From Candidatus Levyibacteriota bacterium (GTDB taxonomy: Bacteria > Patescibacteriota > Microgenomatia > Levybacterales > UBA12049): a DNA stretch of 64,000 bases. The notes beneath the pieces were generated by a model that was given only the letters and a program-made list of their open reading frames with translations, made no database searches and was not told the DNA's origin. Where the stretch lies: contig PLZJ01000002.1 in the NCBI GenBank assembly GCA_003152105.1, positions 533,682 to 597,681 on the forward strand, read 5' to 3'. Both the position numbers and the translations under genes were made by a program. Shown here piece after piece: positions 22,026 to 64,000 of the stretch; position 1 is the first letter of the stretch; each line of letters opens with the position of its first letter.

Positions 22026-22787
22026 ATGGATACTATTTACTTATCTGTTGTGATCCCTTCGTATGATGAGATGGCAAATTTACAAAAAGGAGTCTTGGAA
22101 AAAATTGACAGATTTCTAAGTAAAAAATCTTATTCATTTGAAGTAATAATAGTTGATGATGGATCAAAAGATGGAAGTATTGAATTTGTAGAAGATTTTA
22201 TTAAGGATCACTCTCAGTTTACTGTCATTAAAAATCCTCATTTTGGAAAAGCTGGAGCAGTCACTACAGGAATGTTAAAAGCAAAAGGAAAATATAGATT
22301 GTTTACTGATATGGATCAAGCTACACCGATCGAAGAGCTAGATACTGTTTTACCATTTTTAGAAAATGAACAATTTGATCTAGTAATTGGATCTCGAAAA
22401 AATCAGAGAAAAGGGGCGCCTTTAATAAGGTTATTTGTTTCAAGAAGTAATATAGTGCTAAGAAAATTAATTGTTGGTATTTTAGATATTTCTGATACGC
22501 AGTGTGGATTTAAAATATTTAAAGATAGTGTTGCTTCGGATATATTTGAAACATTTCGGAAAATAAAAAAAGGATTTATCGCAACAAATGGAGCTGCCGT
22601 AACTTCAGGATTTGATGTTGAGCTACTATATATAGCAGAAAAAAAAGGTTACAAAATTAAAGAAGTACCAGTAAAGTGGTTATATGTTGAGAGCCGACGA
22701 GTTAATCCAATAACTGATTCTGTAAAAGGATTAATTGATCTACTTTTGATTAGATTAAATATTCTAAAAGGAATATATACTACATGA
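22026..22787 (+). CDS. GT2 polyprenyl-phosphate sugar synthase (DPM1/GtrB/ArnC-like)
   Basis: LSVVIPSYDE, VIIVDDGSKDGS, DMDQ, DTQCGFK. Single-domain GT2 of the Dpm1 type. Confidence 0.85.
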   Translation: MDTIYLSVVIPSYDEMANLQKGVLEKIDRFLSKKSYSFEVIIVDDGSKDGSIEFVEDFIKDHSQFTVIKNPHFGKAGAVTTGMLKAKGKYRLFTDMDQATPIEELDTVLPFLENEQFDLVIGSRKNQRKGAPLIRLFVSRSNIVLRKLIVGILDISDTQCGFKIFKDSVASDIFETFRKIKKGFIATNGAAVTSGFDVELLYIAEKKGYKIKEVPVKWLYVESRRVNPITDSVKGLIDLLLIRLNILKGIYTT

Positions 22788-23980
22788 AACAATTTAAAGG
22801 TCTTTTTATTTTTACTATTTTTACTTCTCTACTTCTCTTTTTCTATTCATTCACTCAAGTGGATTTGAGTTTAACATTATCAAAATCTTCAGTTTATCAA
22901 AGTGTTGAGAAATGGTTTCAATACATTGGTTATTTTAATAGACCGTTGTCAACTGAGCTATTTATTGGTATTTTAGTACTTCTATTTATTTCTTATTTTT
23001 GGTTACTATATTTAACGCACAAAAAAGTTATTTCAAATAAGCAGTTTTGGTATTTGCTTCTTATAGTAGTATGTATATTAACTTTTTCATATAACGCTTT
23101 TTCTTACGATATTTTTAACAATATCTTTGACGCAAAAATTGTTACGTTTTATCACCAAAATCCATATCTACACAAAGCATTAGATTTTCCTAAAGATCCA
23201 ATGCGTTCGTTTATGCACTGGACGCAAAGAACATATCCGTATGGACCATTATTTTTACTTCTGAATATTGGATTGTCGTATCTAGGTATTAAAATATTTA
23301 TACTAACTTTCTTTATTTTTAAAATAGTAACAAGTTTATTTTTTCTCGGTTGTATATATTATTTACAAAAAATTCTTGGAGGTTGGAGAAAAGAAACATT
23401 ATTTCAAAGTGCTTTTTTCGCATTTAATCCTCTTGTCATTATTGAGTCTATAGTTTCATCACATAATGATGTAATTATGTTATTTTTTGCACTCTGTGGA
23501 TTATATTATTTAATGAAAAAAAAATATTTATTCGCAATACTACTCACACTTTGTTCACCGCTAATTAAGCAAGCTACTTTTTTACTTCCTATTATTATAA
23601 CCCTTTATATCTTGCTTAATAAAAAATTATCTCTCAATAGGTATTCGATATATGCAATATATGCAGTTGTTATGAGTATTATGCTATATGTTTACACCTA
23701 TATTGGATATCTGCTTCCAGGTTTTGCAATTCACGAAATTCAACCATGGTACTTATTGTGGGTTATTCCATTTATAGCGCTTCTTAAACCAAGATATTAT
23801 CTCTATACGCTCTTTATTGGTATCTCACTTGGCCTACTACTTAGATATGTTCCATTTTTATGGCTGGGAAATTGGGATGGTGTTGCTATTCCAGTTCGAA
23901 ATTATTCGTCTTTGCTAGCGCCTTTAGTAGTTCTTGGCTTTGGGTTTATATTTCGGAAATATAAAGTGATAAAGATATAG
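22784..23980 (+). CDS. Polytopic membrane protein, GT87/DUF2029-like putative mannosyltransferase
   Basis: About 10 TM helices. RTYPYGPLFLLL and SSHNDVIM resemble DUF2029 loop motifs. ATGA overlap with the upstream GT2. Confidence 0.4.
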   Translation: MKQFKGLFIFTIFTSLLLFFYSFTQVDLSLTLSKSSVYQSVEKWFQYIGYFNRPLSTELFIGILVLLFISYFWLLYLTHKKVISNKQFWYLLLIVVCILTFSYNAFSYDIFNNIFDAKIVTFYHQNPYLHKALDFPKDPMRSFMHWTQRTYPYGPLFLLLNIGLSYLGIKIFILTFFIFKIVTSLFFLGCIYYLQKILGGWRKETLFQSAFFAFNPLVIIESIVSSHNDVIMLFFALCGLYYLMKKKYLFAILLTLCSPLIKQATFLLPIIITLYILLNKKLSLNRYSIYAIYAVVMSIMLYVYTYIGYLLPGFAIHEIQPWYLLWVIPFIALLKPRYYLYTLFIGISLGLLLRYVPFLWLGNWDGVAIPVRNYSSLLAPLVVLGFGFIFRKYKVIKI

Positions 23981-24022
23981 TGACTATATGTGTTTGTGGG
24001 TAATTTATGTATAATAATACGT

Positions 24023-25576: not shown

Positions 25577-25587
25577 ACTTTGAGTGT

Positions 25588-27288: not shown

Positions 27289-27291
27289 CAT

Positions 27292-30628: not shown

Positions 30629-31331
30629 ATTAAATGAGCTTACGATTTTTTTTCCCTTTTGGAATGAAGAAAAAAATGTTGAAAAAGTTGTTAACACCGC
30701 ACTTTTAATTGCTCCAACTATTGCAAAAAAATTTGAAATCCTAGTTATTGACGATGGATCAACAGATAACACATTAGAAGTTGCAACGAAACTGGCTTCA
30801 AAACAACCGTTTGTTACCATACTCTCTCATGCTCAAAACAGAGGATACGGTGCTGCTTTAAAAGAAGGGTTTGCAAATGCTCAGTATGATTATATTGTTT
30901 TTACTGATGGAGATGACCAGTTTGATTTTTCTCAAGTTACGAAATTTGTTGAAAAAATACATACTGCTGATATTGTCATAGGATTTCGTAGTAGACGCCG
31001 TGATAACATTAGTCGTCACATATTAATGTATATGCTTCGCATATGGGATCAAGTATTATTTGGATTTCATTTTAAAGATATAGATTGTGGATTTAAAATG
31101 TTTAAAAAATCTGCAATTGAACAAATTTCACCACTTCGTTCAGAGGGTGCAATGATCACTACAGAAATTCTTGCAAAATCTAAAAAGAAGAAACAAATAA
31201 TAAAAGAAGTTGAGGTTGATCACTATCCTCGAAAATTTGGCATTCAAAGTGGTGGAGATGTGTATGTAATAGTACGAGCAGTGTTAGAGAGTTTTGTGCT
31301 ATGGTGGGATATACGAAATGGAAGATTTTAG
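30618..31331 (+). CDS. GT2 polyprenyl-phosphate sugar synthase (DPM1/GtrB-like)
   Basis: VIDDGSTDNT, FTDGDDQ, DCGFK. Confidence 0.85.
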   Translation: MANKLNELTIFFPFWNEEKNVEKVVNTALLIAPTIAKKFEILVIDDGSTDNTLEVATKLASKQPFVTILSHAQNRGYGAALKEGFANAQYDYIVFTDGDDQFDFSQVTKFVEKIHTADIVIGFRSRRRDNISRHILMYMLRIWDQVLFGFHFKDIDCGFKMFKKSAIEQISPLRSEGAMITTEILAKSKKKKQIIKEVEVDHYPRKFGIQSGGDVYVIVRAVLESFVLWWDIRNGRF

Positions 31332-32781
31332 TATTGAGTCAGTATCAAAGAAATCATTAACAGGTTTTTTAGCCTTAAGTTCTCGTACCTTCTTTGTTAA
31401 AATTCTAGGACTAATTACCAGTTTTGTTTTAACAATATTTTTAGATAGATCGAGTTATGGCGTTTATTTTATCGCGTCATCAATTGTCGTTTTTTTAGTG
31501 TATTTTCAAGATATTGGACTTGCAGCTTCACTTATTCAAAAAAAAGAAAAACCTACACTTGAGGAACTACGTACAACATTTACCATTCAGCAAATTTTAG
31601 TATTACTCATTATTATTCCGTCCCTTTATTTCTCAAAATATATAGCAAACTTTTATCATTTAAATACATCGGGATTGTATTTACTCGACGCATTGCTCAT
31701 ATCATTTTTTATCTCATCGCTAAAAACAATACCCACAGTACTACTTGAGCGAGATTTGCACTTCCATAAATTAGTATTACCAGATATTGTAGAAAATGTT
31801 TCATATAATTTATTGCTTGTTATCTTTGCAGTAATGGGATTTGGTATAACAAGTTTTACGATTGCAGTAGTTGTCAGAAGCATACTTGGGCTTTTTGTAA
31901 TTTATTATATACAACCATGGGAAATAGGTATATCTTTAAATTTCGAAGTATTTAAGAAATTGGCTTCATTTGGCCTACCGTTTCAAGCAAATAGTTTATT
32001 GGCACTTCTTAAAGATAACTTGGTTAGTTTATTTATTGGAAAACTACTACCATTTGATCAAGTAGGACTTGTTGGGTTTGCACAAAAAATTTCCTATCTT
32101 CCATCTAATCTAATAATGGATAATGTTATCCGTGTAACGTTTCCTTCTTATAGTAGACTGCAGCATGATAAAGCAGGTTTAAAAATTGTAATTGAAAAGT
32201 CGCTTTTTTTAATTGGACTACTCATTTTCCCTCTTGTTGTACTTCTTATTATATTTTCAGGAGACTTTATTAAATATGTTCCTATTGCCCACTATCAAAA
32301 ATGGGCACCGTCAGTTATGTCCATTACATTTTTCTCATTAAATATATTATTTGCATCAATAACAGTTCCATTAACCAATTTCTTAAATGCTATAGGAAAA
32401 GTAAAACTTACGCTCTATGCAATGGTACTTTTGACTATTTTTACCTGGGGTCTTACTCCCTTATTTATCTTTCTTTATGGCTTTAATGGTGTTGCTATTG
32501 CATCTTTTATTGTGGCAGCAAGTTTGATATTAATTCTCCCTTTTGTAAAAAGACAATTAGAATTTTCGTTTGTAAAACCTATTATAAAACCACTTGTTGG
32601 AGCACTTGGACTTTTGGCGCTAGCTTTAACAACGACCATATTTATTAACAGCTTCATGCTCCTTATGTTTGCTGTCTTTTTCTCTGGTTTTGTTTACCTG
32701 TTTATTATGTACATGCTTGCCAAAGATGATATGAAAAGCATTTATTCATTTAGTAGGAATGCAATATTTAAATCAAAATGA
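31318..32781 (+). CDS. Wzx-like oligosaccharide flippase (polysaccharide biosynthesis protein, MOP superfamily)
   Basis: About 12-14 TM helices with PST-family N-terminal pattern (SLTGFLALSSRTFFVKILGLIT…). The track start 31294 is a TTG; first in-frame ATG is 31318. Confidence 0.7.
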   Translation: MEDFSIESVSKKSLTGFLALSSRTFFVKILGLITSFVLTIFLDRSSYGVYFIASSIVVFLVYFQDIGLAASLIQKKEKPTLEELRTTFTIQQILVLLIIIPSLYFSKYIANFYHLNTSGLYLLDALLISFFISSLKTIPTVLLERDLHFHKLVLPDIVENVSYNLLLVIFAVMGFGITSFTIAVVVRSILGLFVIYYIQPWEIGISLNFEVFKKLASFGLPFQANSLLALLKDNLVSLFIGKLLPFDQVGLVGFAQKISYLPSNLIMDNVIRVTFPSYSRLQHDKAGLKIVIEKSLFLIGLLIFPLVVLLIIFSGDFIKYVPIAHYQKWAPSVMSITFFSLNILFASITVPLTNFLNAIGKVKLTLYAMVLLTIFTWGLTPLFIFLYGFNGVAIASFIVAASLILILPFVKRQLEFSFVKPIIKPLVGALGLLALALTTTIFINSFMLLMFAVFFSGFVYLFIMYMLAKDDMKSIYSFSRNAIFKSK

Positions 32782-33698: not shown

Positions 33699-33712
33699 AT
33701 TATTGTTTGTCT

Positions 33713-36021: not shown

Positions 36022-36111
36022 TCTTCAATAGGTAATACCCAATATTTCCGTGATTACAATAGTCGAGCTGAAAATAGAGGTAAAAATTGATACAATTAAT
36101 AAGTATTGCTA

Positions 36112-39422: not shown

Positions 39423-39423
39423 T

Positions 39424-41090: not shown

Positions 41091-41091
41091 T

Positions 41092-46145: not shown

Positions 46146-46146
46146 T

Positions 46147-46164: not shown

Positions 46165-46191
46165 TGAAGAATTTATTATACTGTTTATTAT

Positions 46192-47955: not shown

Positions 47956-47961
47956 TTTATA

Positions 47962-49458: not shown

Positions 49459-49514
49459 TTAGATACCAAACCAATGTATTGCTCAGTATGCAAGAATAAG
49501 CTAAAATTTATCGT

Positions 49515-53334: not shown

Positions 53335-53384
53335 CAAATTATCTCTATTATGAAATTACGTATCCAATTTGATACAATTGAAAT

Positions 53385-54353
53385 ATGAAAATATTAGTAA
53401 CAGGTGGTGCTGGATATATTGGAAGTGTAACGGTTAAGAGTTTACAAAAAGCTGGCCATGAAGTTACCGTATTTGATAATTTAGTTTACGGACATAAAGA
53501 AGCAGTTTCTGCAAATTTAATTGTTGGTGATTTAACTGACAAAAAATTCCTCAATGAAAGTTTGGAAAATATACAATTCGACGGGGTTATTCATTTCGCA
53601 GCATATGCACTGGCTGGTGAATCAATGAAAGACCCCAATAAGTATTTCTACAATAATTTAATTGGTGGTTTGAATTTGTTAGAATTTATGAAAGACCGGA
53701 AAATAAATACTATTATCTTCTCCTCTACGTGTGCCATTTATGGAACTCCAGACACATTGCCAGTAAATGAACTTGAAAGTAAAAAGCCAGATAGTGTATA
53801 CGGCGATTCAAAATTAATGTTTGAAAACATATTGAAGTGGTATGATGCTATTTATCAAATCAAGCACATAAATCTTCGATATTTTAATGCAGCAGGAGCA
53901 ACTATTGATGGTTCTTTAGGTGAGGAGCATGATCCAGAAACACATATAATTCCGATTGCTATTAAAACGGCTCTTGGGAATTTTCCTTCCTTTGAGCTAT
54001 ATGGAAATGATTATGAAACAAAAGATGGGTCATGTATAAGAGACTATATTCATGTTGAGGATTTAGCACAGGCTCATATATTAGCATTAGAATATGCAAT
54101 CAAGACAAAAAAAAGTGATTCTTTTAATTTAGGAAGTGGGATAGGTTATTCAAATCTTGAAGTTCTAGATGAGGTTAAAAAAGTTAGCAATGTAAATTTT
54201 AAAATTGAGATTAAAGATAGGCGCGCAGGTGATCCACCAAAAATTTTCGCAGATAATAAAAAAGCAATAGACGTACTTGGGTTTTCTCCTAAGTTTTCTG
54301 ATCTTGAAACTATTGTTAAAACTGCCTGGAATTGGCATTCCAGTAAAAAATGA
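53385..54353 (+). CDS. galE: UDP-glucose 4-epimerase
   Basis: MKILVTGGAGYIGS, catalytic YGDSK, NAAG, DGSCIRDYIHV. TGaTACAAT at 53370-53378 lies 6 nt before the ATG. Confidence 0.9.
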   Translation: MKILVTGGAGYIGSVTVKSLQKAGHEVTVFDNLVYGHKEAVSANLIVGDLTDKKFLNESLENIQFDGVIHFAAYALAGESMKDPNKYFYNNLIGGLNLLEFMKDRKINTIIFSSTCAIYGTPDTLPVNELESKKPDSVYGDSKLMFENILKWYDAIYQIKHINLRYFNAAGATIDGSLGEEHDPETHIIPIAIKTALGNFPSFELYGNDYETKDGSCIRDYIHVEDLAQAHILALEYAIKTKKSDSFNLGSGIGYSNLEVLDEVKKVSNVNFKIEIKDRRAGDPPKIFADNKKAIDVLGFSPKFSDLETIVKTAWNWHSSKK

Positions 54354-55396: not shown

Positions 55397-55418
55397 TTTT
55401 TGCGATTTCCATTTACCT

Positions 55419-56690
55419 ATGATTAAAAAAATTAAAATACTCTTATCTCATCCTTTAATTTCCGGTTCAACAATACTTCTTGCTGGTAATTTTATAGCAA
55501 ATATATTGAATTGGATATTTAATTTACTCATTGGAGGGAGGCATTTACTATCTGTTGCAGATTATGGAGTATATTCGACATTAGTATCGTTAACAATACT
55601 GGTTGGAATTTTTCAAAGTTCATTTACAAATATTATAGCTCGGTATACTGCCAAAGTGAGTGTGAATAAGGATCAAAAAACGTTAAATTCTATTCTATTT
55701 TCAGGAGGAAAAACAATTCTGTTATTTGCAATTTGTCTTTTGATTGTTCTTCTCCTTTGCTTACCTTTTCTTGCTTCATACTTACATATAGTAGATATAC
55801 GGTTACTACTTATTCTCTATGTTTATATATTTATTGTCATTTTATCTTCCCTACCTCTTGGAATATTGCAAGGGCAACTGCGCTTCTTAAATATATCACT
55901 ATACACAATTGCAACGAGCCTGCTAAAGCTTATTTTAGGAATCATCTTTATAGTACTTGGTTATCAAATATATGGTGTGATTATTGCAGTATTTCTATCT
56001 GGATTACTGCCTATTTTATACATTTCATCATCACTGCTGACTCAGTTTAAAAAAACGGCAAATAGTGGAAAGCAACATCCAGATTTTATGGCAGAATTTA
56101 GAGGTAAATCGCTAGAATTTTTACTGGCTACACTTGGAATAACTGCAATAACTTCACTTGATATAATTCTTGTCAGGCATTTTATGACGCCAGATTTAGC
56201 AGGTAAATATGCTGCGCTTTCAGTTATGGGAAAGGCAATATTGTATCTTACTTCTCCTATGTATTTTGCTTTTTTCCCACTTATAGTACAAAAAAAAGAA
56301 AAGAAAGAATCATTAAAAACTACGGTTTTAATTGCTTCCTTGTTTATCGGATTGGTTTCTGGTTTTTTGACATTGCTTTATTTTATATTTCCAAACTTTA
56401 TTCTTCACATATTTTTTCCAGCAAAGGAATATGCCGTACTTTCTCCTTATCTTGGGTTATTTGCGTTATTTATGATGATATTTTCTTTTGTAATGCTTTT
56501 ATATAATTATCTTTTATCTATTGGTCAGACAAAAATATATAGAATAACGCTTTTTGCAGCTGCATTATTTATACTTCTTATATATATGTATCACCAAAAT
56601 TTATATGAAGTAATCTATATACTACTTGCAATTTCTCTTTTACTTTTAGGTTCATTTTTACTATACTTAACACTTGATGAGCAAAACTAA
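55419..56690 (+). CDS. Wzx-like flippase / polysaccharide biosynthesis membrane protein
   Basis: About 12 TM helices, LAGKYAAL motif, PST-like N-terminus. Confidence 0.6.
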   Translation: MIKKIKILLSHPLISGSTILLAGNFIANILNWIFNLLIGGRHLLSVADYGVYSTLVSLTILVGIFQSSFTNIIARYTAKVSVNKDQKTLNSILFSGGKTILLFAICLLIVLLLCLPFLASYLHIVDIRLLLILYVYIFIVILSSLPLGILQGQLRFLNISLYTIATSLLKLILGIIFIVLGYQIYGVIIAVFLSGLLPILYISSSLLTQFKKTANSGKQHPDFMAEFRGKSLEFLLATLGITAITSLDIILVRHFMTPDLAGKYAALSVMGKAILYLTSPMYFAFFPLIVQKKEKKESLKTTVLIASLFIGLVSGFLTLLYFIFPNFILHIFFPAKEYAVLSPYLGLFALFMMIFSFVMLLYNYLLSIGQTKIYRITLFAAALFILLIYMYHQNLYEVIYILLAISLLLLGSFLLYLTLDEQN

Positions 56691-57420
56691 GCTTCTATCT
56701 GTTATTGTGCCTGCATATAAACAAGGTAAAACCATAGAAGAAGATATTCGTTCATTGGTAACAACTCTTAAAACACTTCCCTATAATTTTGAATTAATAA
56801 TTGTTGTTGATGGGTTTATTGATAATACCTACAAAGTTGCTAAAAAAATGCACATCAAGGGACTCTTTGTAATTGGGTATGAGCAGAACCATGGTAAAGG
56901 GTATGCGATTCAATATGGAGTTTCAAAAGCTAAAGGAGATATAATTGGATTTATTGATGCAGGTATGGATATTAATCCAACGGAGATTGCTATTGCGCTC
57001 GATATCATGGAATGGAATAAGGCAGATATTGTCATCGGAAGCAAACTACATCCTGACTCAAAAGTAAAATATCCTTTGTGGAGACATATAACTTCATGGG
57101 GATATCGGTCATTACTATTTCTTTTATTTCATTTAAGCGTAAGAGATACGCAAGTTGGCTTAAAATTTTTTAGAAAAAAAGTAGCCAAAAAAGTTTTTCC
57201 TAAAATTTTAGTGAAAAAATTTGCTTTTGATGTTGAAGTTCTTGCAGTTGCAATATCTTATGGTTACAATAACATATATGAATCTCCAATCATCCTTAAT
57301 TTTAATGGTAAAGGGTCTATATCGTCGAGAAATTTTTGGAAAATAATTGGTTCAATGATGTGGGATACCGGTGCAGTATTTTATCGATTAAAGATACTTA
57401 GATATTATTCACGAAAATAA
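56674..57420 (+). CDS. GT2 polyprenyl-phosphate sugar synthase (DPM1/GtrB-like)
   Basis: LSVIVPAYKQ, LIIVVDGFIDNT, FIDAGMDINP, DTQVGLKFF. Confidence 0.8.
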   Translation: MMSKTKLLSVIVPAYKQGKTIEEDIRSLVTTLKTLPYNFELIIVVDGFIDNTYKVAKKMHIKGLFVIGYEQNHGKGYAIQYGVSKAKGDIIGFIDAGMDINPTEIAIALDIMEWNKADIVIGSKLHPDSKVKYPLWRHITSWGYRSLLFLLFHLSVRDTQVGLKFFRKKVAKKVFPKILVKKFAFDVEVLAVAISYGYNNIYESPIILNFNGKGSISSRNFWKIIGSMMWDTGAVFYRLKILRYYSRK

Positions 57421-57422
57421 AT

Positions 57423-58718
57423 ATGATTGACATAACGAAATTAAATAAATTTAAAGATAAAAATGTAGTTGTTTTTGGAGATATAATGCTTGATAAATAT
57501 ACTGATGGATTAGTTAATAGGATTTCTCCAGAAGCACCAGTTCCAGTACTCAAAAAATCAAAAGATACGTATACACTAGGTGGCGCTGCAAATGTAGCAA
57601 ATAATTTGATAGGACTTGGAGCGAGTGTCTTTTTAAGTGGAATAATTGGTACTGATGAAAACGGAAAAACTCTTCTCAATTTATTAAAGGAAAAAAAGAT
57701 AGATGCAACGCTTATTTATAAAGATAAAAATGTAGTCACTATTACTAAAAATAGAATACTTGGAAACAATCAACAACTAATTCGAATTGATGAAGAAAAT
57801 GACATAGCAGAAATTCCAAAGATTAAGGTTGCTGAGTTAAAAAACATAAAAAAAATTATTGCAAAATCTGACGTTGTTGTTCTCTCAGATTATGGTAAAG
57901 GGTATTTTAATAAAAAACTTGCAGCGCAGATAATTCAATTAGCAAAAAAACTAGATAAACTTATCTTAGTTGATTGTAAACCTGTAAACAAATCGTATTT
58001 TATAGGAGTAGATGTGATAAAACCAAACTTGAAAGAAGCAAAAGAAATGACGAGCGAGTCTTCGATTTCCGATATCGGCTCAAAACTTGTTAAATATTTT
58101 AAATCCAATATTGTGCTCACATCAGGAGGAGACGGCATATACTTATATGATAAAAAAGGGAAATCCACACATTTTTCTTCTCAAAAAGTGGAAGTGTTTG
58201 ATGTTAGTGGAGCAGGAGATACAGTGCTTGCTATGTTAGCTTTAACACTTGCTTCAAGCTTTACCTTACAAGATGCATCTTATCTTGCCAATTATGCAGC
58301 TGGTATTGTTGTGCAAAAACAAAGAACTGCTGCAATTTCATATGATGATTTGCTTAGTGTTTTACAAGAAGATAGTCATTTAGATAAAGTTGCTATTGTT
58401 CCAAAATTATGGGGATATGAGAAATGGATTGAGAATAATGAGATGTACTGCTCAAAACTACTGTATTTAAAAAAAGGATATCAATGCAGTTTGCATTACC
58501 ATAAAATAAAAGATGAAATGTTTATTGTCACCAGTGGTCATGTAAGACTTGAAGTAGATGACAAAGTTGTTTATTTACGAACAGGAAATTTTCAACGTAT
58601 TAAGGCTTTAACAAAACACAGATTTTTGGGCTTAGAAGAGTCAACTATAATTGAAGTAAGTACGCAACATTTTGAAGATGATTCTTATAGAATTGAAGAG
58701 AGTAAAAAAGTTTCATGA
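57423..58718 (+). CDS. D-glycero-beta-D-manno-heptose-7-phosphate kinase (HldE domain I/HldA-like, ribokinase fold) fused to a C-terminal metal-binding cupin domain
   Basis: Kinase: VVVFGDIMLDKY…VPVLK, LGGAANVANNL, FDVSGAGDTV. Cupin from about 58389: G-x5-HYH-x4-E-x6-G (GYQCSLHYHKIKDEMFIVTSG) and a second His in LTKHRFLG. Confidence 0.8.
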   Translation: MIDITKLNKFKDKNVVVFGDIMLDKYTDGLVNRISPEAPVPVLKKSKDTYTLGGAANVANNLIGLGASVFLSGIIGTDENGKTLLNLLKEKKIDATLIYKDKNVVTITKNRILGNNQQLIRIDEENDIAEIPKIKVAELKNIKKIIAKSDVVVLSDYGKGYFNKKLAAQIIQLAKKLDKLILVDCKPVNKSYFIGVDVIKPNLKEAKEMTSESSISDIGSKLVKYFKSNIVLTSGGDGIYLYDKKGKSTHFSSQKVEVFDVSGAGDTVLAMLALTLASSFTLQDASYLANYAAGIVVQKQRTAAISYDDLLSVLQEDSHLDKVAIVPKLWGYEKWIENNEMYCSKLLYLKKGYQCSLHYHKIKDEMFIVTSGHVRLEVDDKVVYLRTGNFQRIKALTKHRFLGLEESTIIEVSTQHFEDDSYRIEESKKVS

Positions 58719-59716
58719 ATAATCTTATAGCAACTGAGAAAGACCTTCTTTCAACAATCAAGACAATAAGAAAAAATAATCAAACAATAGTGACATATAA
58801 TGGTAGTTTTGATTTGTTGCATATAGGACACATACGTTCTATTCATGAAGCAAAACAACAAGGGGATATTCTCATAGTGCTACTTAATTCTGATAACTCA
58901 GTTAAAAAATATAAAGGATCGAGCAGACCTATTATTGGTGAAAATGATCGAGCAGAAATGTTGCTTTCTTTAAAAGATGTTGATTATGTATATATTTTTG
59001 ATGCAATAAATCCTAAATCAATATTAGAACTTATAAAACCTACTGTACATTGTAATGGATCTGATTGGGGTAAGGATTGTGTAGAAAAAGATGTGGTAGA
59101 AAAAAATGGAGGTAGCGTACATGTACTTTCATGGAACGAAGGAAGCTCAACCTCGAATCTTATAGCGAAAATTATAAGTGCAAACAAAATTCCACCTAAG
59201 AAAGCTGTATTTATCGATAGAGATGGCACTATAAATGATAATAAAAATGGATATGTGCATACAAAAGAAGAATTTTCACTGCTTCCTGGTGTTGAAACAG
59301 CACTTAAAGCTTTAGGTGCATCTGATTTTTTAATAATTATCATAACAAATCAGTCAGGTATAAGTCGTGGTATGTATACCGAAGAAGAGTATGTTTTATT
59401 TGAAAAATGGTTTATGAGTGAAATGGAAAGAAGAAAAATTCGTATTGATAAAATTTATCATTGCCCACATGGATCTTTTGATAATTGTTCTTGTCGGAAA
59501 CCAGGGAGTGGAATGTTGTTTCAAGCAGTTACTGATTTTGATATTAGTTTAAATGACAGTTGGATGATTGGTGATAGTGAAGTAGATATTATTTTAGGAA
59601 GAGAAGTTAATACAAAAACAATTAAACTTGGCACACCTATGAGCAAGAGCACTAATCTAGAACCTAATTATTATGCCAACAGTCTAACTGACGCGATTGC
59701 TCTCATTTTGAAATAA
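58715..59716 (+). CDS. D-glycero-beta-D-manno-heptose-1-phosphate adenylyltransferase (HldE domain II/HldC-like) fused to D,D-heptose-1,7-bisphosphate phosphatase (GmhB)
   Basis: Nucleotidyltransferase: NGSFDLLHIGHI (HxGH). HAD phosphatase from about 59200: FIDRDGTIN, CSCRKPGSGM, GDSEVD. Confidence 0.8.
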   Translation: MNNLIATEKDLLSTIKTIRKNNQTIVTYNGSFDLLHIGHIRSIHEAKQQGDILIVLLNSDNSVKKYKGSSRPIIGENDRAEMLLSLKDVDYVYIFDAINPKSILELIKPTVHCNGSDWGKDCVEKDVVEKNGGSVHVLSWNEGSSTSNLIAKIISANKIPPKKAVFIDRDGTINDNKNGYVHTKEEFSLLPGVETALKALGASDFLIIIITNQSGISRGMYTEEEYVLFEKWFMSEMERRKIRIDKIYHCPHGSFDNCSCRKPGSGMLFQAVTDFDISLNDSWMIGDSEVDIILGREVNTKTIKLGTPMSKSTNLEPNYYANSLTDAIALILK

Positions 59717-59723
59717 TATACTG

Positions 59724-60704
59724 ATGTCAAATATAAAAGATTATTCTAGTCCAATAATTATTACAGGAGGAGCGGGATTTATAGGTTCTAATTTAGTCAA
59801 ATCCTTAAATGATAAAGGTATTTTTGATATTTATATAGTAGATGATTTGAATTCCCACTTTAAGAAATCTTATCTTGAAAAACTAATATATATAAAATAT
59901 TTTGATAAGAAAGATTTTCGAAAATTACTCCAAAATAAACAACTTCCAAAAGCTGAGTCAATTATTCATTTAGGAGCATGTTCTGATACGACTGAATATA
60001 ATATGCAATATTTATTAGACAATAATGTTGCATATAGTAAAGACATATTTAAATATTGTTTAGATTCAGGAATAAAGTTTATCTATGCATCTTCTGCGGC
60101 AGTCTACGGTGATGGTGTAAATGGATATAACGAAAATGTGACAAAGCTATGGCCTTTAAATCCTTATGCAAAATCTAAATACTTGTTTGATGAATGGGTT
60201 ATAAAAAAATCACATAAACCCTCAACGTGCGTAGGTCTTCGATTTTTTAATGTTTACGGACCCAATGAGTTTCACAAAGGGAAAATGGCTTCAATGGTTT
60301 TTCAAGCATTTAATCAAGTGAATGATAATGGGGCGATTCGATTATTTAAATCTTACAATAAAAAATATGCTGATGGAGCGCAACAGCGAGATTTTATATA
60401 TGTTTGCGATGTTGTAGATGTTATAGAATTTTTTCTAAAACAAAAAAATAGCACTGGTATTTTTAATGTTGGTTCAGGAAAAGCCAGATCTTTTAATGAT
60501 TTAGCAAAAGCATTATTTAAATCTATGCAAAAAGATGAAAACATACAATATATTGCAATGCCAAAGTCGCTGATCGCAAAATATCAATATTTTACACAAG
60601 CTGACTTAGATCATTTACGAAGTGCAGGATATAAAGGCAGTTTTACTACTATAGAAGAAGGAATTAGAAAATACGTACAAGAGTATTTACAAAAAACTCC
60701 CTAA
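59724..60704 (+). CDS. hldD: ADP-L-glycero-D-manno-heptose 6-epimerase
   Basis: IIITGGAGFIGSNLVKSLNDKG, HLGACSDTTE, YASSAAVYGDG, catalytic NPYAKSKY. The sequence follows the HldD/RfaD pattern along its whole length. Confidence 0.9.
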   Translation: MSNIKDYSSPIIITGGAGFIGSNLVKSLNDKGIFDIYIVDDLNSHFKKSYLEKLIYIKYFDKKDFRKLLQNKQLPKAESIIHLGACSDTTEYNMQYLLDNNVAYSKDIFKYCLDSGIKFIYASSAAVYGDGVNGYNENVTKLWPLNPYAKSKYLFDEWVIKKSHKPSTCVGLRFFNVYGPNEFHKGKMASMVFQAFNQVNDNGAIRLFKSYNKKYADGAQQRDFIYVCDVVDVIEFFLKQKNSTGIFNVGSGKARSFNDLAKALFKSMQKDENIQYIAMPKSLIAKYQYFTQADLDHLRSAGYKGSFTTIEEGIRKYVQEYLQKTP

Positions 60705-60706
60705 CT

Positions 60707-61768
60707 ATGAAAATAGCAGTGCTTTGTTTGCCTGGAATTGGTGATGCCTTGATGGCTACTCCAATGATTTCTCTGCTCCGAAAAAATTACCCTAGCGCTC
60801 GAATAGATATTATTTGTATGTTTGATGGGGTGTCTTACATTTTTGAAACGAACAAAGATATTTCACATACCTTTAAACTCTCTTTGTACAAAGAGAACAA
60901 AATAAAAGGATTAATTCAGATATATAAACTTAGAAAACAAAAGTATGATATTTCAATTATGGCTTTTCCAGCATTTAGACGGGAATATAATTTAGTTCAT
61001 TATATTGTAGGCGCAAAGAAACGTATTGCTCATTCATTTACCCACGGATACTTTTCCGAATTTACTTTTTTAAATAACACAACAATTCCGTTTGACGGAA
61101 AAGAGCATAATGTAATAAATAATTTAAATCTTTTAAATAGCTTACAAATAAAATGGAATGATACAATAAAGCGAAATACTATATCGTATTTGTTGCACTT
61201 ACAGCATAAAGATGTTCTATTTGGCACTCATTACATTGCATCTAAAGGCCTGGCAAATAAAAAGCTTTTAGCAATACACCCTGGATCCATAAATTCTAAA
61301 GCAGGTTTATTAAAACGTTGGCCAATTAAAAATTACATAAATTTGATTAATACATTAGCAGATCGAAATTGTCACATATTACTTTTTGGAGGTCCTTTTG
61401 AAAAAGAAATAATTACTGAAATTACAAAATCCGTTAAAAAAAGTAGCTATCTTACGGTTGTGGATAATGTTACGTTTGGTCAAAGTCTTGGTATATTACA
61501 AAAAGCAAGATTGCTCATATCAAATGATAATGGTTTTGCTCATCTTGCAAACGCATTACAGATTAATGAACTTACGTTATTTGGACCAACTAATCCAATT
61601 TGGTGTAGTCCATATAATAAAAATTATGCTCATGTTATTAGGGAAGCATCATTTACTCCTTGGTTTCGTCCAGACATGAAAGTTACTACTCTTCCACGTT
61701 TTGCACCAAGTGGCATGGAATTAATAACTGTGGCAAGCGTATTGAATGTGTTAAAAAAGTTGTTATAA
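60707..61768 (+). CDS. GT9 family ADP-heptose-dependent heptosyltransferase (WaaC/WaaF/WaaQ-like)
   Basis: MKIAVLCLPGIGDALMATPMISLLRK N-terminus. C-terminal HPGS…KRWP and DNGFAHLA motifs typical of GT9. Confidence 0.8.
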   Translation: MKIAVLCLPGIGDALMATPMISLLRKNYPSARIDIICMFDGVSYIFETNKDISHTFKLSLYKENKIKGLIQIYKLRKQKYDISIMAFPAFRREYNLVHYIVGAKKRIAHSFTHGYFSEFTFLNNTTIPFDGKEHNVINNLNLLNSLQIKWNDTIKRNTISYLLHLQHKDVLFGTHYIASKGLANKKLLAIHPGSINSKAGLLKRWPIKNYINLINTLADRNCHILLFGGPFEKEIITEITKSVKKSSYLTVVDNVTFGQSLGILQKARLLISNDNGFAHLANALQINELTLFGPTNPIWCSPYNKNYAHVIREASFTPWFRPDMKVTTLPRFAPSGMELITVASVLNVLKKLL

Positions 61769-61809
61769 TTAGGTATCAAAATTATAGTTGAGTTTAGAAT
61801 TTTTCAATC

Positions 61810-62664
61810 ATGACCAAAAATCCATTAGTTTCAATCATAATTCCTACATATAATAGACAAATGTATGTTCCGGCTTGTTTAGAATCAATTAAAAATCAAA
61901 CATACAAAAATATACAAACAATAATTGTTGATCAAGATAGCAGTGATGATACTCCAAAAATTGCGAAAAAATATGGTGCTCTTGTTATAAAAAGATCCAG
62001 ACCTAAGTTTTATTCACCCCCCAGTAAATCTAGAAATATGGGATTTAAAGAATCCAAAGGTGAAATTATAGTACATTTAGACAGCGATATGGAATTATCA
62101 CCAAAGCTTATAGAAGAAGCAGTAAATCTTTTAACCACTGGTAATTATGGAGCACTAGTAGTTCATGAAATTGATAAAACAAAAGGCTTTTGGAGTAAAT
62201 GTAAATCTTTGGAAAGGAGATGTTATTGGGGAAACTTGAATATCGAAGCGGCAAGAATTGTTACAAGAAAAGTTTTTAAAGAGGTTGGTGGCTATGATGA
62301 AGGTCTTAATTCAGGAGATGATTTAAATGTTTCAAAAAGATACATCAAAAAAGCACATGTTGGATTTTGTAAAAACATACTTTATCATAATATCGGAGAT
62401 TTAGACTTTATGAAGTTAATGTTAAAAAAATTTAATTACGGTAAAACTTCACCAAAATATTTTCGAAAAACAAAATCAAGTCCGGTTGGATATTTTATTG
62501 AGGAATATAAATGCTTTGCAAAAAACTATTTATTATTACTTCGTAATCCTATTGTAGGAATAGGGATGTTATTTATGAAGACTTCTGAAATATTATTTGG
62601 ATTCTTAGGTTATACAGTTGATAGATATAAAATTAATCTTAACTGGAATATATATGAAAAATAA
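61810..62664 (+). CDS. GT2 family glycosyltransferase
   Basis: VSIIIPTYNR, IIVDQDSSDDT, HLDSDMEL. Confidence 0.8.
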   Translation: MTKNPLVSIIIPTYNRQMYVPACLESIKNQTYKNIQTIIVDQDSSDDTPKIAKKYGALVIKRSRPKFYSPPSKSRNMGFKESKGEIIVHLDSDMELSPKLIEEAVNLLTTGNYGALVVHEIDKTKGFWSKCKSLERRCYWGNLNIEAARIVTRKVFKEVGGYDEGLNSGDDLNVSKRYIKKAHVGFCKNILYHNIGDLDFMKLMLKKFNYGKTSPKYFRKTKSSPVGYFIEEYKCFAKNYLLLLRNPIVGIGMLFMKTSEILFGFLGYTVDRYKINLNWNIYEK

Positions 62665-63853
62665 ACATTCGAGAATGTATATTTTTGCATATAATGTTGA
62701 ACCGAATGGAATATCGGGAGGAGAAACAATTTTAATCGAAACATTTAAACGTATTGCTTCACGATTTACTTATGTTGATATTTATTGTTGGGGACCTTCA
62801 CATGATTTGTACACAACTTATGGTTTAGTTGGGGTAAATTATATTATTTCTCCTATTCTGGTTATAAAAAATTTTTACGCTTCATTTATTTTACGAACTT
62901 TTTTTGGAATATATAAAGGCATAACGCTTCATATTAATAAAGATGAGGTAAATTATTTATATTTTTCTTCTGATTTTTTGCCGGATGCATTAGCGGTAAT
63001 ACTATTAAAACTTAGATATCCTAAATCTATATTTATAGGAAATTTTTTTCTTGCAGCGCCTAATCCATTTAAAGGTTTTAACGAAAACGGAAGAATAAGA
63101 TTCCCTAGTCTTAATGGTATTTTTTTTTGGATTACACAAAAGCCAGTTTATTTTTTCACAAAATATTATGCAGATTTAATTTTAATTACGAGTTTGCCCG
63201 ATATTATTCGTTTTCCTAAACAGAGTAAGAAAGATGCGTATTATATTGTTAAAGGTGGTGTTAATTTAGAAAGTATACGTAAATTTGAGAAAAAAAATAA
63301 AAATATCAAAAAAGAAAATGACGCGATATTTATTGGTAGATTTCATCCACAAAAAGGCGTATCGCAACTTATTGATATCTGGAAATTAGTTGTAAGAAAA
63401 AAACCCGATGCTCGATTAGTAATGATTGGAGACGGTCCACTTTTTAAAACAATTAAAAATAAAATCAAAATATTACAGTTAACTAAAAACATTATTCTTA
63501 CTGGTTATATATTTGATGCCACAAAAAGATATATGTTGTACATGCAAAGTAAAATAATTCTTCATCCGGCGGTGTATGATAGCGGAGGAATGGCAATTAC
63601 AGAAGCTATGGCGCTTGGTCTTCCAGGCATTTCATTTGATTTAGAGGCATTAAAAACATATTATCCCACTGGAGTACTAAAAGTAACACTTAATGATTTT
63701 GCAGGATTTGCTGATAAAATTATTGCACTTTTAGATAATCAAACTCTATATCGTAAGACGCAAATCAACGCAATTTCACTCATAGAGTCTGAATGGGATT
63801 GGAATAAACGTGCAACAGAACTTGCAGATAAGATATTTTCAATTAAAAAGTAA
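62654..63853 (+). CDS. GT4 family (GT-B) glycosyltransferase
   Basis: GRFHPQKG…GGMAITEAMALGLPGISFDLE (E-x7-E). First in-frame ATG is 62654; the track start 62618 overlaps the upstream gene. Confidence 0.75.
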   Translation: MKNKHSRMYIFAYNVEPNGISGGETILIETFKRIASRFTYVDIYCWGPSHDLYTTYGLVGVNYIISPILVIKNFYASFILRTFFGIYKGITLHINKDEVNYLYFSSDFLPDALAVILLKLRYPKSIFIGNFFLAAPNPFKGFNENGRIRFPSLNGIFFWITQKPVYFFTKYYADLILITSLPDIIRFPKQSKKDAYYIVKGGVNLESIRKFEKKNKNIKKENDAIFIGRFHPQKGVSQLIDIWKLVVRKKPDARLVMIGDGPLFKTIKNKIKILQLTKNIILTGYIFDATKRYMLYMQSKIILHPAVYDSGGMAITEAMALGLPGISFDLEALKTYYPTGVLKVTLNDFAGFADKIIALLDNQTLYRKTQINAISLIESEWDWNKRATELADKIFSIKK

Positions 63854-63856
63854 TTA

Positions 63857-64000
63857 TGTTTACGATTTTACATAAAATTAAACATGTTTGTAATTATCTA
63901 CTGAAAAAAATAGGACTTTATGATGTTTTTCATAAAACCATTATTAAACTTTTTAGTAAAAGAGAAATACTTTCAAGGAAATATTTATACGGAAAAGGGA
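63857..64000 (+). CDS. Hypothetical protein, N-terminal 48 codons only (cut off by window end)
   Basis: ATG 3 nt after the previous stop. Open to the window end. Continues the + strand operon. Confidence 0.3.

Follow-up and report, generated by a model that had tools for sequence, protein, structure and literature searches.

A dense same-strand array of surface-sugar genes, rich in GT-C-type membrane proteins, in an uncultured Candidatus Levybacteria genome

Gene content and extent

The window analysed is a 64,000-nucleotide stretch from the genome (~1.15 Mb) of an uncultured Candidatus Levybacteria bacterium (CPR/Patescibacteria, Microgenomates), in which a single same-strand block of surface-sugar genes makes up ~5% of the genome. 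In the ORF listing of the window, 33 consecutive plus-strand ORFs run from 22026 to 63853 (Table 1). As first described, short overlaps are frequent: 15 of the 32 junctions overlap, 9 of them by 4 bp, and the largest gap is 84 bp. Only four minus-strand ORFs of ≥100 aa (105 to 119 aa) occur in this interval, all nested within plus-strand genes. The preliminary description had everything on the plus strand from the tRNA-Glu onward; this holds for the 33 ORFs, whereas the tRNA-Glu itself is on the minus strand. GC content is 29 to 31% in the cluster versus 33 to 37% upstream, and low GC is typical for surface-polysaccharide loci. The genes may be co-transcribed; counts of consensus promoters and terminators in the cluster did not exceed those in shuffled sequence. 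The 33 genes comprise four DPM1/GtrB/ArnC-like GT2, five other GT2, three GT4, and one GT9 transferase, two MOP flippases, GalE, ADP-heptose genes, and 14 polytopic proteins placed in GT-C.

Table 1. Features of the array and its flanks, in window coordinates
Gene	Feature	Position	Strand	Match
	GT-C paralog, g20/g22/g23 family, 498 aa, ~13 TM	14550..16046	+	
	Acyl_transf_3 membrane O-acyltransferase, 665 aa, ~17 hydrophobic segments	17468..19468	-	PF01757 82.5 bits
	tRNA-Glu(CTC)	21853..21926	-	
g01	Soluble GT2, polyprenyl-phosphate sugar synthase-like, 253 aa	22026..22787	+	PF00535 85 bits
g02	GT-C, ALG3/PIG-M/PimE (GT87-like) class, 398 aa	22784..23980	+	
g03	GT-C, PMT_2 family, 528 aa	23990..25576	+	PF13231 39 bits (cut-off 26.1)
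g04	GT-C, PMT/ArnT-like, 566 aa	25588..27288	+	PF13231 45.6 bits; PF02366 31.9 bits
g05	GT-C, YfhO/PTPS_related-like, 553 aa	27292..28953	+	BLASTP 4e-54 to g06
g06	GT-C, YfhO family, 561 aa	28943..30628	+	PF09586 58.1 bits (cut-off 28.5); PF10131 38.5 bits
g07	Soluble GT2, polyprenyl-phosphate sugar synthase-like, 237 aa	30618..31331	+	PF00535 108 bits
g08	MOP-family (Wzx-type) flippase, 487 aa as called	31318..32781 (ORF 31294)	+	PF13440 162 bits
g09	GT2, 306 aa	32778..33698	+	PF00535; PF13641
g10	GT-C candidate, Pfam-less family A, 520 aa as called, ~13 TM	33713..35275 (ORF 33707)	+	
g11	GT2, 249 aa, paralog of g21 and g32	35272..36021	+	PF00535 64 bits; BLASTP 9e-29 to g21
g12	GT4, 353 aa as called	36112..37173 (ORF 36106)	+	PF00534 76 bits
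g13	GT-C, YfhO family, large C-terminal region, 750 aa	37170..39422	+	PF09586 109 bits
g14	GT2, 317 aa	39424..40377	+	PF00535 76 bits
g15	Soluble GT2, polyprenyl-phosphate sugar synthase-like, 238 aa	40374..41090	+	PF00535 132 bits
g16	GT-C, PMT/ArnT-like, 565 aa	41092..42789	+	BLASTP 2e-84 to g17
g17	GT-C, PMT/ArnT-like, 553 aa as called	42847..44508 (ORF 42793)	+	PF02366 56 bits; PF13231 41.6 bits
g18	GT-C, PMT/ArnT-like, 546 aa	44505..46145	+	PF13231 34.7 bits
g19	GT-C candidate, family A, 587 aa	46192..47955	+	BLASTP 5e-12 to g10
g20	GT-C, PMT_2, 498 aa	47962..49458	+	PF13231 43.3 bits
g21	GT2, 253 aa	49515..50276	+	PF00535 83 bits
g22	GT-C, 516 aa, true start may be later	50201..51751	+	hhalign
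g23	GT-C, PMT_2, 528 aa	51748..53334	+	PF13231 32.3 bits
g24	UDP-glucose 4-epimerase GalE	53385..54353	+	TIGR01179 405.9 bits (cut-off 262.3)
g25	GT4, 348 aa	54350..55396	+	PF00534 97 bits
g26	MOP-family flippase, 423 aa, ~10 TM	55419..56690	+	PF01943 52.4 bits (cut-off 28.2)
g27	Soluble GT2, polyprenyl-phosphate sugar synthase-like, 247 aa as called	56677..57420 (ORF 56674)	+	PF00535 81 bits
g28	Heptose-7-phosphate kinase (HldA-type) with C-terminal cupin/PMI-like domain	57423..58718	+	TIGR02198 314.6 bits
g29	Heptose-1-phosphate adenylyltransferase (HldC)/heptose-1,7-bisphosphate phosphatase (GmhB) fusion	58715..59716	+	
g30	ADP-glyceromanno-heptose 6-epimerase	59724..60704	+	TIGR02197 401 bits (cut-off 274.6)
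g31	GT9 heptosyltransferase-family protein	60707..61768	+	PF01075 94.8 bits (cut-off 22)
g32	GT2, 284 aa	61810..62664	+	PF00535 96.6 bits
g33	GT4, 399 aa as called	62654..63853 (ORF 62618)	+	PF00534 98 bits
	Methyltransferase, 5' end (gene 253 aa; source-contig loci L002 and L085)	63856..64000	+	

The array is larger than first described, continuing past both of the limits originally set (22026 and 64000). Upstream, the protein at 14550 was linked to g23 by BLASTP (3e-37) and to alignment A4 by hhalign (99.85%), and it has the SDxxRD...LPLIG motif of the g20/g22/g23 family in loop 1; it has no Pfam match. The acyltransferase at 17468 is possibly linked to the array, though it lies outside the operon-like part. 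Downstream, all genes to window-equivalent position 80839 (at least 80.8 kb) are on the plus strand, in the order methyltransferase, epimerase, GT2, methyltransferase, 1166-aa AftD-like GT-C (homologs bear PF11847), 422-aa YfhO-like protein, FkbM methyltransferase, GT2, GT4, hexapeptide acyltransferase, GT2, and 1022-aa Wzy_C protein. The last lies ~15 kb past the window, and its homologs, which bear PF04932, are named "O-antigen ligase family", in keeping with the earlier suggestion that a polymerase or ligase gene might lie beyond 64000. The priming phosphotransferase reported missing from the window did not appear farther out either: no initiating phosphoglycosyltransferase of the WecA/WbaP type was found between the start of the window and window-equivalent 80.8 kb, so that a lipid-PP-linked arm would be without its first enzyme here.

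Cytoplasmic transferases and sugar supply

The two Wzx-like flippases, the further GT2 and GT4 enzymes, GalE, and the ADP-heptose module were all recovered as first listed; the module has four genes, including a GT9 transferase. NCBIfam matches of g08 are to MOP and O-glycosylation flippases, and g09 matches a rhamnosyltransferase subfamily under the cut-off. In the heptose module, g28 scores under the TIGR02198 cut-off of 345 and carries PF07883 and PF01050 at residues 326 to 425, g29 matches TIGR02199 (151.7 bits, residues 15 to 153) and NF006506 (157.7 bits, residues 162 to 325), and g30 exceeds its equivalog cut-off. The kinase, adenylyltransferase, phosphatase, and 6-epimerase domains are adjacent and accompanied by a GT9 gene, as in the ADP-L-glycero-beta-D-manno-heptose pathway of the LPS inner core. 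Unlike in that pathway, no SIS-type GmhA isomerase is present here, a cupin/PMI-like domain being fused to the kinase instead; the fusions (kinase with cupin, adenylyltransferase with phosphatase) differ from E. coli HldE, and g31 falls under the cut-off of every LPS heptosyltransferase model. CPR bacteria are considered to lack LPS.

The four small GT2 proteins g01, g07, g15, and g27 are mutual paralogs (BLASTP) with no predicted TM segments; the membrane helices found in GtrB, ArnC, and archaeal DPMS are absent. Two of the four were searched against solved structures, with polyprenyl-phosphate sugar synthases as the top matches of both: g15 (residues 1 to 216) aligned to the P. furiosus Dol-P-Man synthase DPMS (5mlz, E 2.4e-16), and the top PDB matches of g01 were DPMS 5mlz, GtrB 5ekp, and ArnC. 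The NCBIfam matches of g07 (PgfS, AglJ, ArnC, and Dol-P-hexose transferase, all sub-threshold) and g27 (PpgS and ArnC, under cut-off) resemble those of this pair, and none of the four reaches an NCBIfam equivalog cut-off. These results agree with the initial assignment as single-domain DPM1/GtrB-type synthases. No GtrA/GtcA-type small flippase for polyprenyl-P-sugars is present in the locus.

GT-C membrane proteins

About 16 polytopic proteins of GT-C type had been proposed; 16 were found, of which two are the flippases and the other 14 were all placed in the GT-C superfamily, none among transporters. Eight of the 14 exceed the Pfam gathering score for PMT/PMT_2 or YfhO, and the rest are tied in by paralogy or by profile-profile links at 97 to 99.9%. 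BLASTP groups g04, g16, g17, and g18 (g04 is 31 to 34% identical to the others; g16 scores 25.7 bits for PMT_2, slightly below cut-off) with g03 as a distant member, g05 with g06 (g13 sharing the C-terminus), g10 with g19, and g20 with g23. The Pfam match of g05 is itself under cut-off, and the g05/g06 family is linked to the g13 family at 99.8% (hhalign). By the same method, g22 is linked to the g20/g23 family (99.9%) and to the PMT-like family (99.1%).

Family A (g10 and g19) consists of GT-C candidates through profile-profile comparison only: its alignment (A7) matched the PMT-like family by hhalign at 97.0% (E 1.1e-10, 389 columns, DE motifs aligned), the link being 97% with deep alignments versus 55% with a shallow one. 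A reading of the large membrane proteins as transporters, or as non-enzymatic in another way, within an ordinary locus for capsule or EPS is very improbable. For g02, g10, g19, and g22 (four of the 14), Pfam does give no match up to an E of 5, and the family A profile finds only chance-level PDB matches, including an MFS transporter (E 0.17); the hhalign links to GT-C families and the ALG3/PimE-class placement largely refute this reading.

In 14 of 16 GT-C candidates, an acidic motif comes after TM1 and an N-terminus rich in K/R, for instance FTDEA after TM1 in g03, WDEAA in g16, and DEFDN after TM1 in g19; no clear motif was found in the downstream proteins h38 and h39. Because of this preceding N-terminus and TM1, the positive-inside rule would place the motifs outside the cell, as proposed before, by a heuristic, hand-made hydropathy and positive-inside check.

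The Pfam matches to PMT/PMT_2 and related families could also indicate direct protein O-glycosylation, in which PMT- and YfhO-like GT-C enzymes would each move single sugars from polyprenyl-P-sugar directly to Ser/Thr residues of secreted proteins such as S-layer proteins, pilins, or adhesins, in the manner of actinobacterial and eukaryotic PMTs, with paralogs reflecting different protein substrates or sugars and not steps of one polymer. The Wzy_C family also has the protein O-oligosaccharyltransferases PglL and PilO among its members, and finding no priming transferase in ~80 kb is consistent with an acceptor lacking a lipid-PP linkage. We nevertheless regard this as rather unlikely: among solved structures, the PMT-like profile (A1, g17) best matches the lipid-modifying ArnT (5ezm, E 2e-4) and not a PMT, no MIR domain was detected with Pfam, the characterised relatives of the AftD-, ALG3/PimE-, and YfhO-like enzymes act on glycans or polymers, and the ~10 cytoplasmic GT2/GT4/GT9 enzymes with two MOP flippases imply an oligosaccharide intermediate.

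Related loci

Relatives of g17 were found in GTDB genomes (n = 577), and the best 80 loci among them, mostly Levybacteria, were compared. A fixed gene frame with variable GT-C cassettes was seen again in these loci, with the kept order g09-g11-g12-g13-g14-g15-[variable GT-C]-g17-g18-[variable]-g21-g24-g25-g26-g27. Genes g17 and g18 are neighbours in 74 related loci, g21 keeps its position, and g15 is the most conserved of the four synthases (orthologs 45 to 67% identical in most related loci). In the 45 loci of ≥20 kb, the median count of GT-C ORFs is 8 per 21.6 kb, and one strand carries 98% of the homologs.

Such variation is what add-on decorations would produce, and the synthases are spread out, each near a GT-C gene (g01-g02, g06-g07, and g15-g16, with g27 after the flippase g26). 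The locus might thus hold independent Gtr or CsbB-YfhO modules of synthase plus GT-C, each modifying a different wall polymer, beside an unrelated Wzx-dependent locus and with no assembly line; multi-component transmembrane glycosylation systems of Gram-positive bacteria are a precedent (PMC5836110, PMC8035078). This arrangement appears doubtful to us, since 14 to 17 GT-C genes for four synthases are far from 1:1, a GtrA/GtcA-type flippase is absent, and order and tight same-strand packing are kept across Levybacteria, Roizmanbacteria, and Gottesmanbacteria.

Proposed pathway and comparison with known systems

The island is probably the main cell-surface glycan locus of its host, with a hybrid pathway of Wzx flipping and GT-C extension. 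GalE would supply UDP-Gal and the fused four-gene module ADP-L-glycero-D-manno-heptose, with an epimerase, an acyltransferase, and methyltransferases encoded farther downstream, and the soluble GT2, GT4, and GT9 enzymes would build a lipid-carried oligosaccharide on the cytoplasmic side of the membrane. One or both MOP flippases may then export it. In parallel, the four divergent soluble DPM1/PpgS-like GT2 proteins would charge polyprenyl phosphate with single sugars, and at least 15 to 17 GT-C enzymes of four to five families would use these lipid-linked sugars as donors outside the cell, extending or branching the glycan or decorating the final acceptor. The Wzy_C-family protein is a candidate ligase, polymerase, or O-oligosaccharyltransferase. 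The extracytoplasmic logic put forward in the preliminary description is supported by the GT-C placement and the donor-synthase structure matches.

In mycobacterial and corynebacterial LM/LAM/arabinogalactan assembly (Ppm1/PpgS-type synthases with PimE, MptA/B/C, EmbA/B/C, and AftA-D), polyprenyl phosphate is likewise charged by soluble or peripheral GT2 enzymes, and a large set of GT-C enzymes from several families makes a branched glycan outside the membrane. PimE/ALG3-, AftD-, and ArnT/PMT-class GT-C proteins and small GT2 proteins matching the PpgS model are found here, and no cluster protein reaches the equivalog threshold of the mycobacterial enzymes. In Corynebacteriales, the GT-C genes are scattered over a genome of ~4 Mb, whereas here at least 15 to 17 lie in one same-strand block of a ~1.15-Mb CPR genome, together with YfhO-like and Pfam-less families, MOP flippases, the ADP-heptose/GT9 module, and Wzy_C.

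Wzx/Wzy O-antigen, capsule, and S-layer-glycan loci share with this one MOP flippases, GT2/GT4 and nucleotide-sugar genes, low GC, species-variable content, and a nearby Wzy_C-family protein. Unlike in those loci, GT-C enzymes dominate, the ~80 kb holds no initiating phosphoglycosyltransferase, and the Wzy_C protein has 1022 aa and lies outside the window. The three-component systems GtrA/GtrB/GtrX, CsbB-GtcA-YfhO (lipoteichoic acid), and ArnC-ArnE/F-ArnT follow the same logic, a cytoplasmic GT2 making a C55-P-sugar that is flipped and transferred outside by a GT-C enzyme (PMC5836110, PMC8035078). YfhO (PF09586), PMT_2 members, and GtrB/ArnC-like GT2 are common to both, whereas the locus has no GtrA/GtcA/ArnEF-type flippase, its synthases have no C-terminal membrane helices, ~4 synthases serve ~16 GT-C proteins, not 1:1, and a full cytoplasmic oligosaccharide set lies alongside.

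No description of so many surface-sugar enzymes packed together in these organisms was found in the literature, of which coverage was incomplete. The enzymes themselves are of known kinds. By analogy with O-antigen loci, a frame that is kept while its GT-C cassettes are swapped between species suggests that these bacteria may make species-specific surface glycans.

Organization and extent of the block

The ORF listing of the window gave 33 consecutive plus-strand ORFs (g01 to g33) from 22026 to 63853. The gaps are 84 bp at most, 15 of the 32 junctions are overlapping, and 4-bp ATGA-type overlaps occur nine times. Only four minus-strand ORFs of at least 100 aa were found in 22026-63853, all short and nested within plus-strand genes. 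By this listing and these junction counts, the preliminary description of an all-plus-strand, tightly packed run from 22026 is correct. The tRNA-Glu(CTC) from which it counted the run exists and sits on the minus strand (Table), and a 169-bp gap lies 5' of g01. The GC content is 29-31% in the block (22000-64000) versus 33-37% in the upstream housekeeping region (1-22000); a GC content below that of the surroundings is often seen in surface-polysaccharide loci. Promoter and terminator scans gave counts equal to those in shuffled sequence and so were uninformative on operon structure; the block would probably be co-transcribed.

The same-strand block was recovered, and its limits are wider than the 22026-64000 first proposed. 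Upstream, an additional GT-C member of the g20/g22/g23 family starts at 14550 (BLASTP 3e-37 to g23; hhalign 99.85% to the family), and the plus-strand run continues to at least 80,839 in window-equivalent coordinates, i.e., extended past 64,000. The array is at least 58.8 kb long from 22026, or ~5.1% of the contig, and ~5.8% when counted from 14550. The acyltransferase encoded just upstream of the cluster could O-acylate the same glycan or peptidoglycan. Farther upstream is an overlapping plus-strand gene pair, the second gene of which encodes an ABC-2/DrrB-like permease.

Table. Features of the array, its flanks, and related loci. Positions are in the window unless a locus is named.
Feature	Position	Strand	Assignment
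Upstream gene pair	8167-10048	+	First gene 8167-8964; second gene 8954-10048
GT-C paralog	14550-16046	+	g20/g22/g23 family; 498 aa, ~13 TM, no Pfam match; 6 kb upstream of 22026
Acyltransferase	17468-19468	-	Acyl_transf_3 (OatA-like) membrane O-acyltransferase, 665 aa
Hydrolase ORF	21137-21856	+	Alpha/beta-hydrolase
tRNA-Glu(CTC)	21853-21926	-	Its end shares 4 bp with the stop region of the hydrolase ORF
g01, g07, g09, g11, g14, g15, g21, g27, g32		+	GT2 (Pfam/NCBIfam)
g12, g25, g33		+	GT4 (Pfam/NCBIfam)
g08		+	MOP/Wzx-type flippase, PF13440, 162 bits
g26		+	MOP/Wzx-type flippase, PF01943, 52 bits
g10	33707-35275	+	Family A, Pfam-less membrane protein
g19	46192-47955	+	Family A, Pfam-less membrane protein
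g24		+	GalE, TIGR01179, 406 bits (cut-off 262)
g28	57423-58718	+	HldA-type heptose-7-P kinase with C-terminal cupin/type-II PMI-like domain
g29	58715-59716	+	HldC adenylyltransferase fused to GmhB phosphatase
g30		+	ADP-glyceromanno-heptose 6-epimerase, 401 bits (above cut-off 274.6)
g31		+	GT9 protein
Downstream gene 1 (past g33)		+	Methyltransferase
Downstream gene 2		+	Epimerase
Downstream gene 3		+	GT2
Downstream gene 4		+	Methyltransferase
Downstream gene 5		+	1166-aa protein; homologs bear PF11847 (AftD-type GT-C)
Downstream gene 6		+	422-aa polytopic protein, 95% to YfhO-like family
Downstream gene 7		+	Weak GT9-like protein
Downstream gene 8		+	FkbM methyltransferase
Downstream gene 9		+	GT2
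Downstream genes 10-11		+	Split GT4, then further GT4
After the GT4 genes		+	Hexapeptide acyltransferase, then GT2
Wzy_C candidate	L085 (source contig) 21967-23501 = window-equivalent ~79305-80839	+	1022 aa; last gene of the stretch read
Fusion protein	L026 (related genome) 2732-4870	+	713 aa
RHS/Tc-toxin-like protein	L023 (related genome) 480-6005	-	1842 aa

Large membrane proteins

The hydropathy scan returned 16 polytopic proteins in the block; two of these are the flippases, which leaves 14 GT-C candidates (g02-g06, g10, g13, g16-g20, g22, and g23). For the unannotated membrane proteins, transporter identity, put forward as the alternative that could overturn a GT-C reading, was weighed and discarded: based on Pfam, BLASTP, and profile-profile links, it fails for 14 of 14, with residual doubt on family A (g10 and g19) only.

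The Pfam PMT_2/PMT cut-offs were passed by g03, g04, g17, g18, g20, and g23. With 25.7 bits, g16 missed the PMT_2 cut-off of 26.1 by 0.4 bits; over 512 residues, it shares 34% identity with g17. The profile of the PMT-like family (g04, g16, g17, and g18), across which D58/E59 are invariant, matches ArnT 5ezm (E = 2e-4). Using alignments of orthologs from related genomes, g22 was linked to the g20/g23 family (hhalign 99.9%) and to the PMT-like family (99.1%); the g20/g22/g23 family profile gave only chance-level matches against solved structures. YfhO (PF09586, cut-off 28.5) was passed by g13 (109.4 bits) and g06 (58.1 bits), and g05 joins this family via BLASTP (4e-54 to g06). No Pfam match was obtained for g02, g10, g19, or g22 even at E up to 5. 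Candidates of the ArnT/PMT-like class have 7-15 hydropathy peaks, and g19 has 6.

The g02 protein has a GT-C fold and most resembles ALG3, PIG-M, and PimE, and its profile matches GPI mannosyltransferase I (E = 7.8e-6). In hmmscan, g02 itself did not match GT87 (PF09594) even at E up to 5, and its homologs all bear PF26314, with precomputed PF09594 on some only. Therefore, g02 is GT87-like in fold and not a demonstrated GT87 member.

Family A was tentatively connected to the PMT-like family by hhalign of deep alignments (97.0%, E = 1.1e-10, 389 columns, DE motifs aligned); shallower inputs gave 94% in one comparison and only 55% against the four-sequence PMT-like alignment. The single invariant Asp of the family is D44 of g10, within a DE-type motif. 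A sample of 48 members yielded no Pfam domain, the family profile had only chance-level matches to PDB sequences, and the AF2 model built from a two-sequence alignment was unusable (pLDDT 37.8). The family comprises 808 cluster representatives (50% identity) at E <= 1e-3 among 1.84 billion.

All 14 candidates and the 14550 paralog share a short K/R-rich N-terminus (1-7 K/R and 0-1 D/E among the candidates), followed by TM1 and a loop with an acidic motif (WDEAA, DEFxN, HDGE/HDD, SDxxRD, FDP, or QVD). Since the K/R-rich N-terminus and TM1 precede it, the acidic loop is predicted to face the outside of the cell by the positive-inside rule, a heuristic applied here to hydropathy profiles. For the ArnT/PMT-like class, the family itself and the four neighboring donor-synthase-like GT2 genes suggest that the donor would be a polyprenyl-phosphate-linked sugar.

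Putative donor synthases, flippases, and the missing primer

The four small GT2 proteins (g01, g07, g15, and g27) are 237-253 aa long and mutually 26-31% identical. Hydropathy analysis detected no hydrophobic segments in them, and the C-terminal helices of GtrB, ArnC, and archaeal DPMS are absent, as would fit the soluble DPM1/PpgS subtype. The best solved-structure matches of g15 and g01, the two proteins covered by the structure comparison, are P. furiosus DPMS 5mlz (E = 2.4e-16 and 4.6e-11, respectively), ArnC, and GtrB; g07 and g27 are their paralogs with similar NCBIfam matches. None of the four reached the equivalog cut-offs for PpgS, ArnC, AglJ, or Dol-P-hexose transferase, with scores far below (g15 versus AglJ, 112 bits, cut-off 325). 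From the family and structure matches, the lack of TM segments, and the cut-offs missed, these proteins look like soluble polyprenyl-phosphate sugar synthases of no named orthologous group.

Scans of the 33 genes and of genes downstream gave no GtrA/GtcA-family flippase (PF04138), and gaps of <= 84 bp leave no space for an unannotated one in the block. The block differs in this from the three-component Gtr and CsbB-GtcA-YfhO systems, in which a small GtrA/GtcA flippase goes with a synthase and a GT-C enzyme. A MOP flippase is common to the block and the Wzx/Wzy-dependent pathway, whereas no WecA/MraY- or WbaP/PglC-like initiating phosphoglycosyltransferase was found in the cluster, in the scanned upstream genes, or downstream to 80.8 kb. 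The window also contains no Wzy polymerase or WaaL/PglL-type ligase. The preliminary description had noted these absences and suggested that the genes might lie beyond 64000; a Wzy_C-family candidate does lie there, and the primer was still not found to 80.8 kb. The first 511 aa of this 1022-aa candidate score 24.4 bits for Wzy_C, under the cut-off of 31.7; its homologs bear PF04932, are named 'O-antigen ligase family protein', and are widespread in Patescibacteria (1782 at E <= 1e-10).

Heptose module

The kinase, adenylyltransferase, phosphatase, and 6-epimerase activities of the ADP-L-glycero-beta-D-manno-heptose pathway are all encoded by g28-g30. Three of the scores are below but near the cut-offs (kinase 314.6, cut-off 345; adenylyltransferase 151.7, cut-off 181.5; phosphatase 157.7, cut-off 178). 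The E. coli HldE combines kinase and adenylyltransferase, whereas g29 combines adenylyltransferase and phosphatase. No SIS-domain protein, and hence no SIS-type sedoheptulose-7-phosphate isomerase GmhA, was found in the cluster. The isomerase may be the cupin domain of g28; sedoheptulose-7-phosphate isomerization is chemically analogous to F6P-to-M6P isomerization. The heptose pathway is present in an organism regarded as lacking LPS.

Conservation in relatives

One genome per GTDB species was scanned with the PMT-like alignment, and 577 relatives were found, the best 80 of the 577 at 47-61% identity. Many of the best 80 are labelled Candidatus Levybacteria/Levyibacteriota or 'Patescibacteria group', and Roizmanbacteria and Gottesmanbacteria are also represented. 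Dozens of MAG clusters (loci L020, L026, L028, L032, and others) are labelled 'uncultured Gammaproteobacteria' yet are Levybacteria-like, with 50-58% identity and the same synteny; the label on these records is very likely a placeholder or mislabel.

The proposed synteny comparison recovered a conserved same-strand frame among the best 80 loci, which, with their ORFs mapped onto g01-g33, reads g09-g11-g12-g13-g14-g15-[variable GT-C]-g17-g18-[variable GT-C]-g21-[g20/g22/g23]-g24-g25-g26-g27. In other genomes, the variable slots hold GT-C-type families absent from the window, including GT87-like, DUF2079, canonical PMT_2, and several Pfam-less polytopic families. The 45 loci that are 20 kb or longer have a median of 8 GT-C ORFs per 21.6 kb, with one strand for 98% of homologs.

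Two proteins from related genomes were also recorded. The 713-aa protein of L026 joins an N-terminal GT-C-like polytopic region to a penicillin-binding-protein dimerization domain, which hints at a link between glycosyltransferase and cell wall. At L023, an RHS/Tc-toxin-like protein (SpvB, TcdB_mid, FG-GAP, RHS repeats, and CARDB) adjoins the glycosylation cluster.

Proposed mechanism and comparison with known systems

Drawn from the observed gene content, families, paralogy, and synteny, the donors, topology, and order of steps in one assembly line would be as follows. At the inner face, a lipid-borne oligosaccharide would be built and flipped with the help of the nucleotide-sugar genes, ~10 soluble GT2/GT4/GT9 enzymes, and two MOP flippases. 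For the outer face, polyprenyl-P-sugars would come from the four soluble DPM1/PpgS-like synthases, and the GT-C battery would spend them there to extend, branch, or decorate a glycan or acceptor. The downstream Wzy_C protein would be the candidate polymerase, ligase, or O-oligosaccharyltransferase for the final transfer. There are two main alternatives. Secreted proteins may be the direct substrates of the GT-C enzymes, in the manner of PMT-type O-glycosylation, or the block may consist of decoration modules that work independently and not as one assembly line. ArnT-type lipid A modification was rejected, as the scale, family diversity, and lineage do not appear to fit.

Mycobacterial LM/LAM/arabinogalactan assembly follows the same logic as the proposed assembly line. 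The multi-component transmembrane glycosylation systems known from Gram-positive bacteria (PMC5836110, PMC8035078) also work in this way. All components are in known superfamilies, so the locus does not represent a novel type of system. It departs from described systems in carrying at least 15-17 GT-C genes, which fall into four to five families (one Pfam-less), in a single co-directional block of a ~1.15-Mb genome; in the conservation, across a CPR lineage, of a frame whose cassettes can be swapped; in its complete-looking ADP-heptose/GT9 module without GmhA; and in the absence of a primer and a GtrA-type flippase from the stretch. No description of the cluster was found in the literature, the coverage of which was incomplete, and a prior mention elsewhere is possible. 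Earlier CPR papers remarked only on multiple 'dolichol-phosphate mannosyltransferase' copies, and glycans go unmentioned both in a recent perspective on CPR/Patescibacteria and in a large genomic survey of the group.

Implications

CPR/Patescibacteria have tiny genomes, and the studied ones live attached to host cells; to our knowledge, almost nothing is known of their surface composition. A joint reading, which we offer as speculative and rather doubtful in its entirety, is that in Levybacteria, and probably in other Microgenomates, a complex surface glycoconjugate that is branched, methylated, and contains heptose is assembled for the most part outside the cell, using the densest contiguous GT-C array known to us (at least 15-17 in ~60-66 kb, or 5-6% of the genome). 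The lineage-specific exchange of GT-C cassettes, Pfam-less families included, would then amount to a glycan 'serotype' code, possibly governing ultrasmall episymbiont-host attachment or phage escape; as a side claim of the same reading, the g28 cupin would replace GmhA.

That a conserved block takes up ~5% of the genome suggests that these cells invest heavily in surface glycans. With the locus, the catalogue gains a candidate GT-C family that is Pfam-less and has ~800 cluster representatives. The locus also offers concrete targets for study in four candidate lipid-sugar synthases, a defined GT-C set, and a heptose pathway in an organism regarded as lacking LPS.
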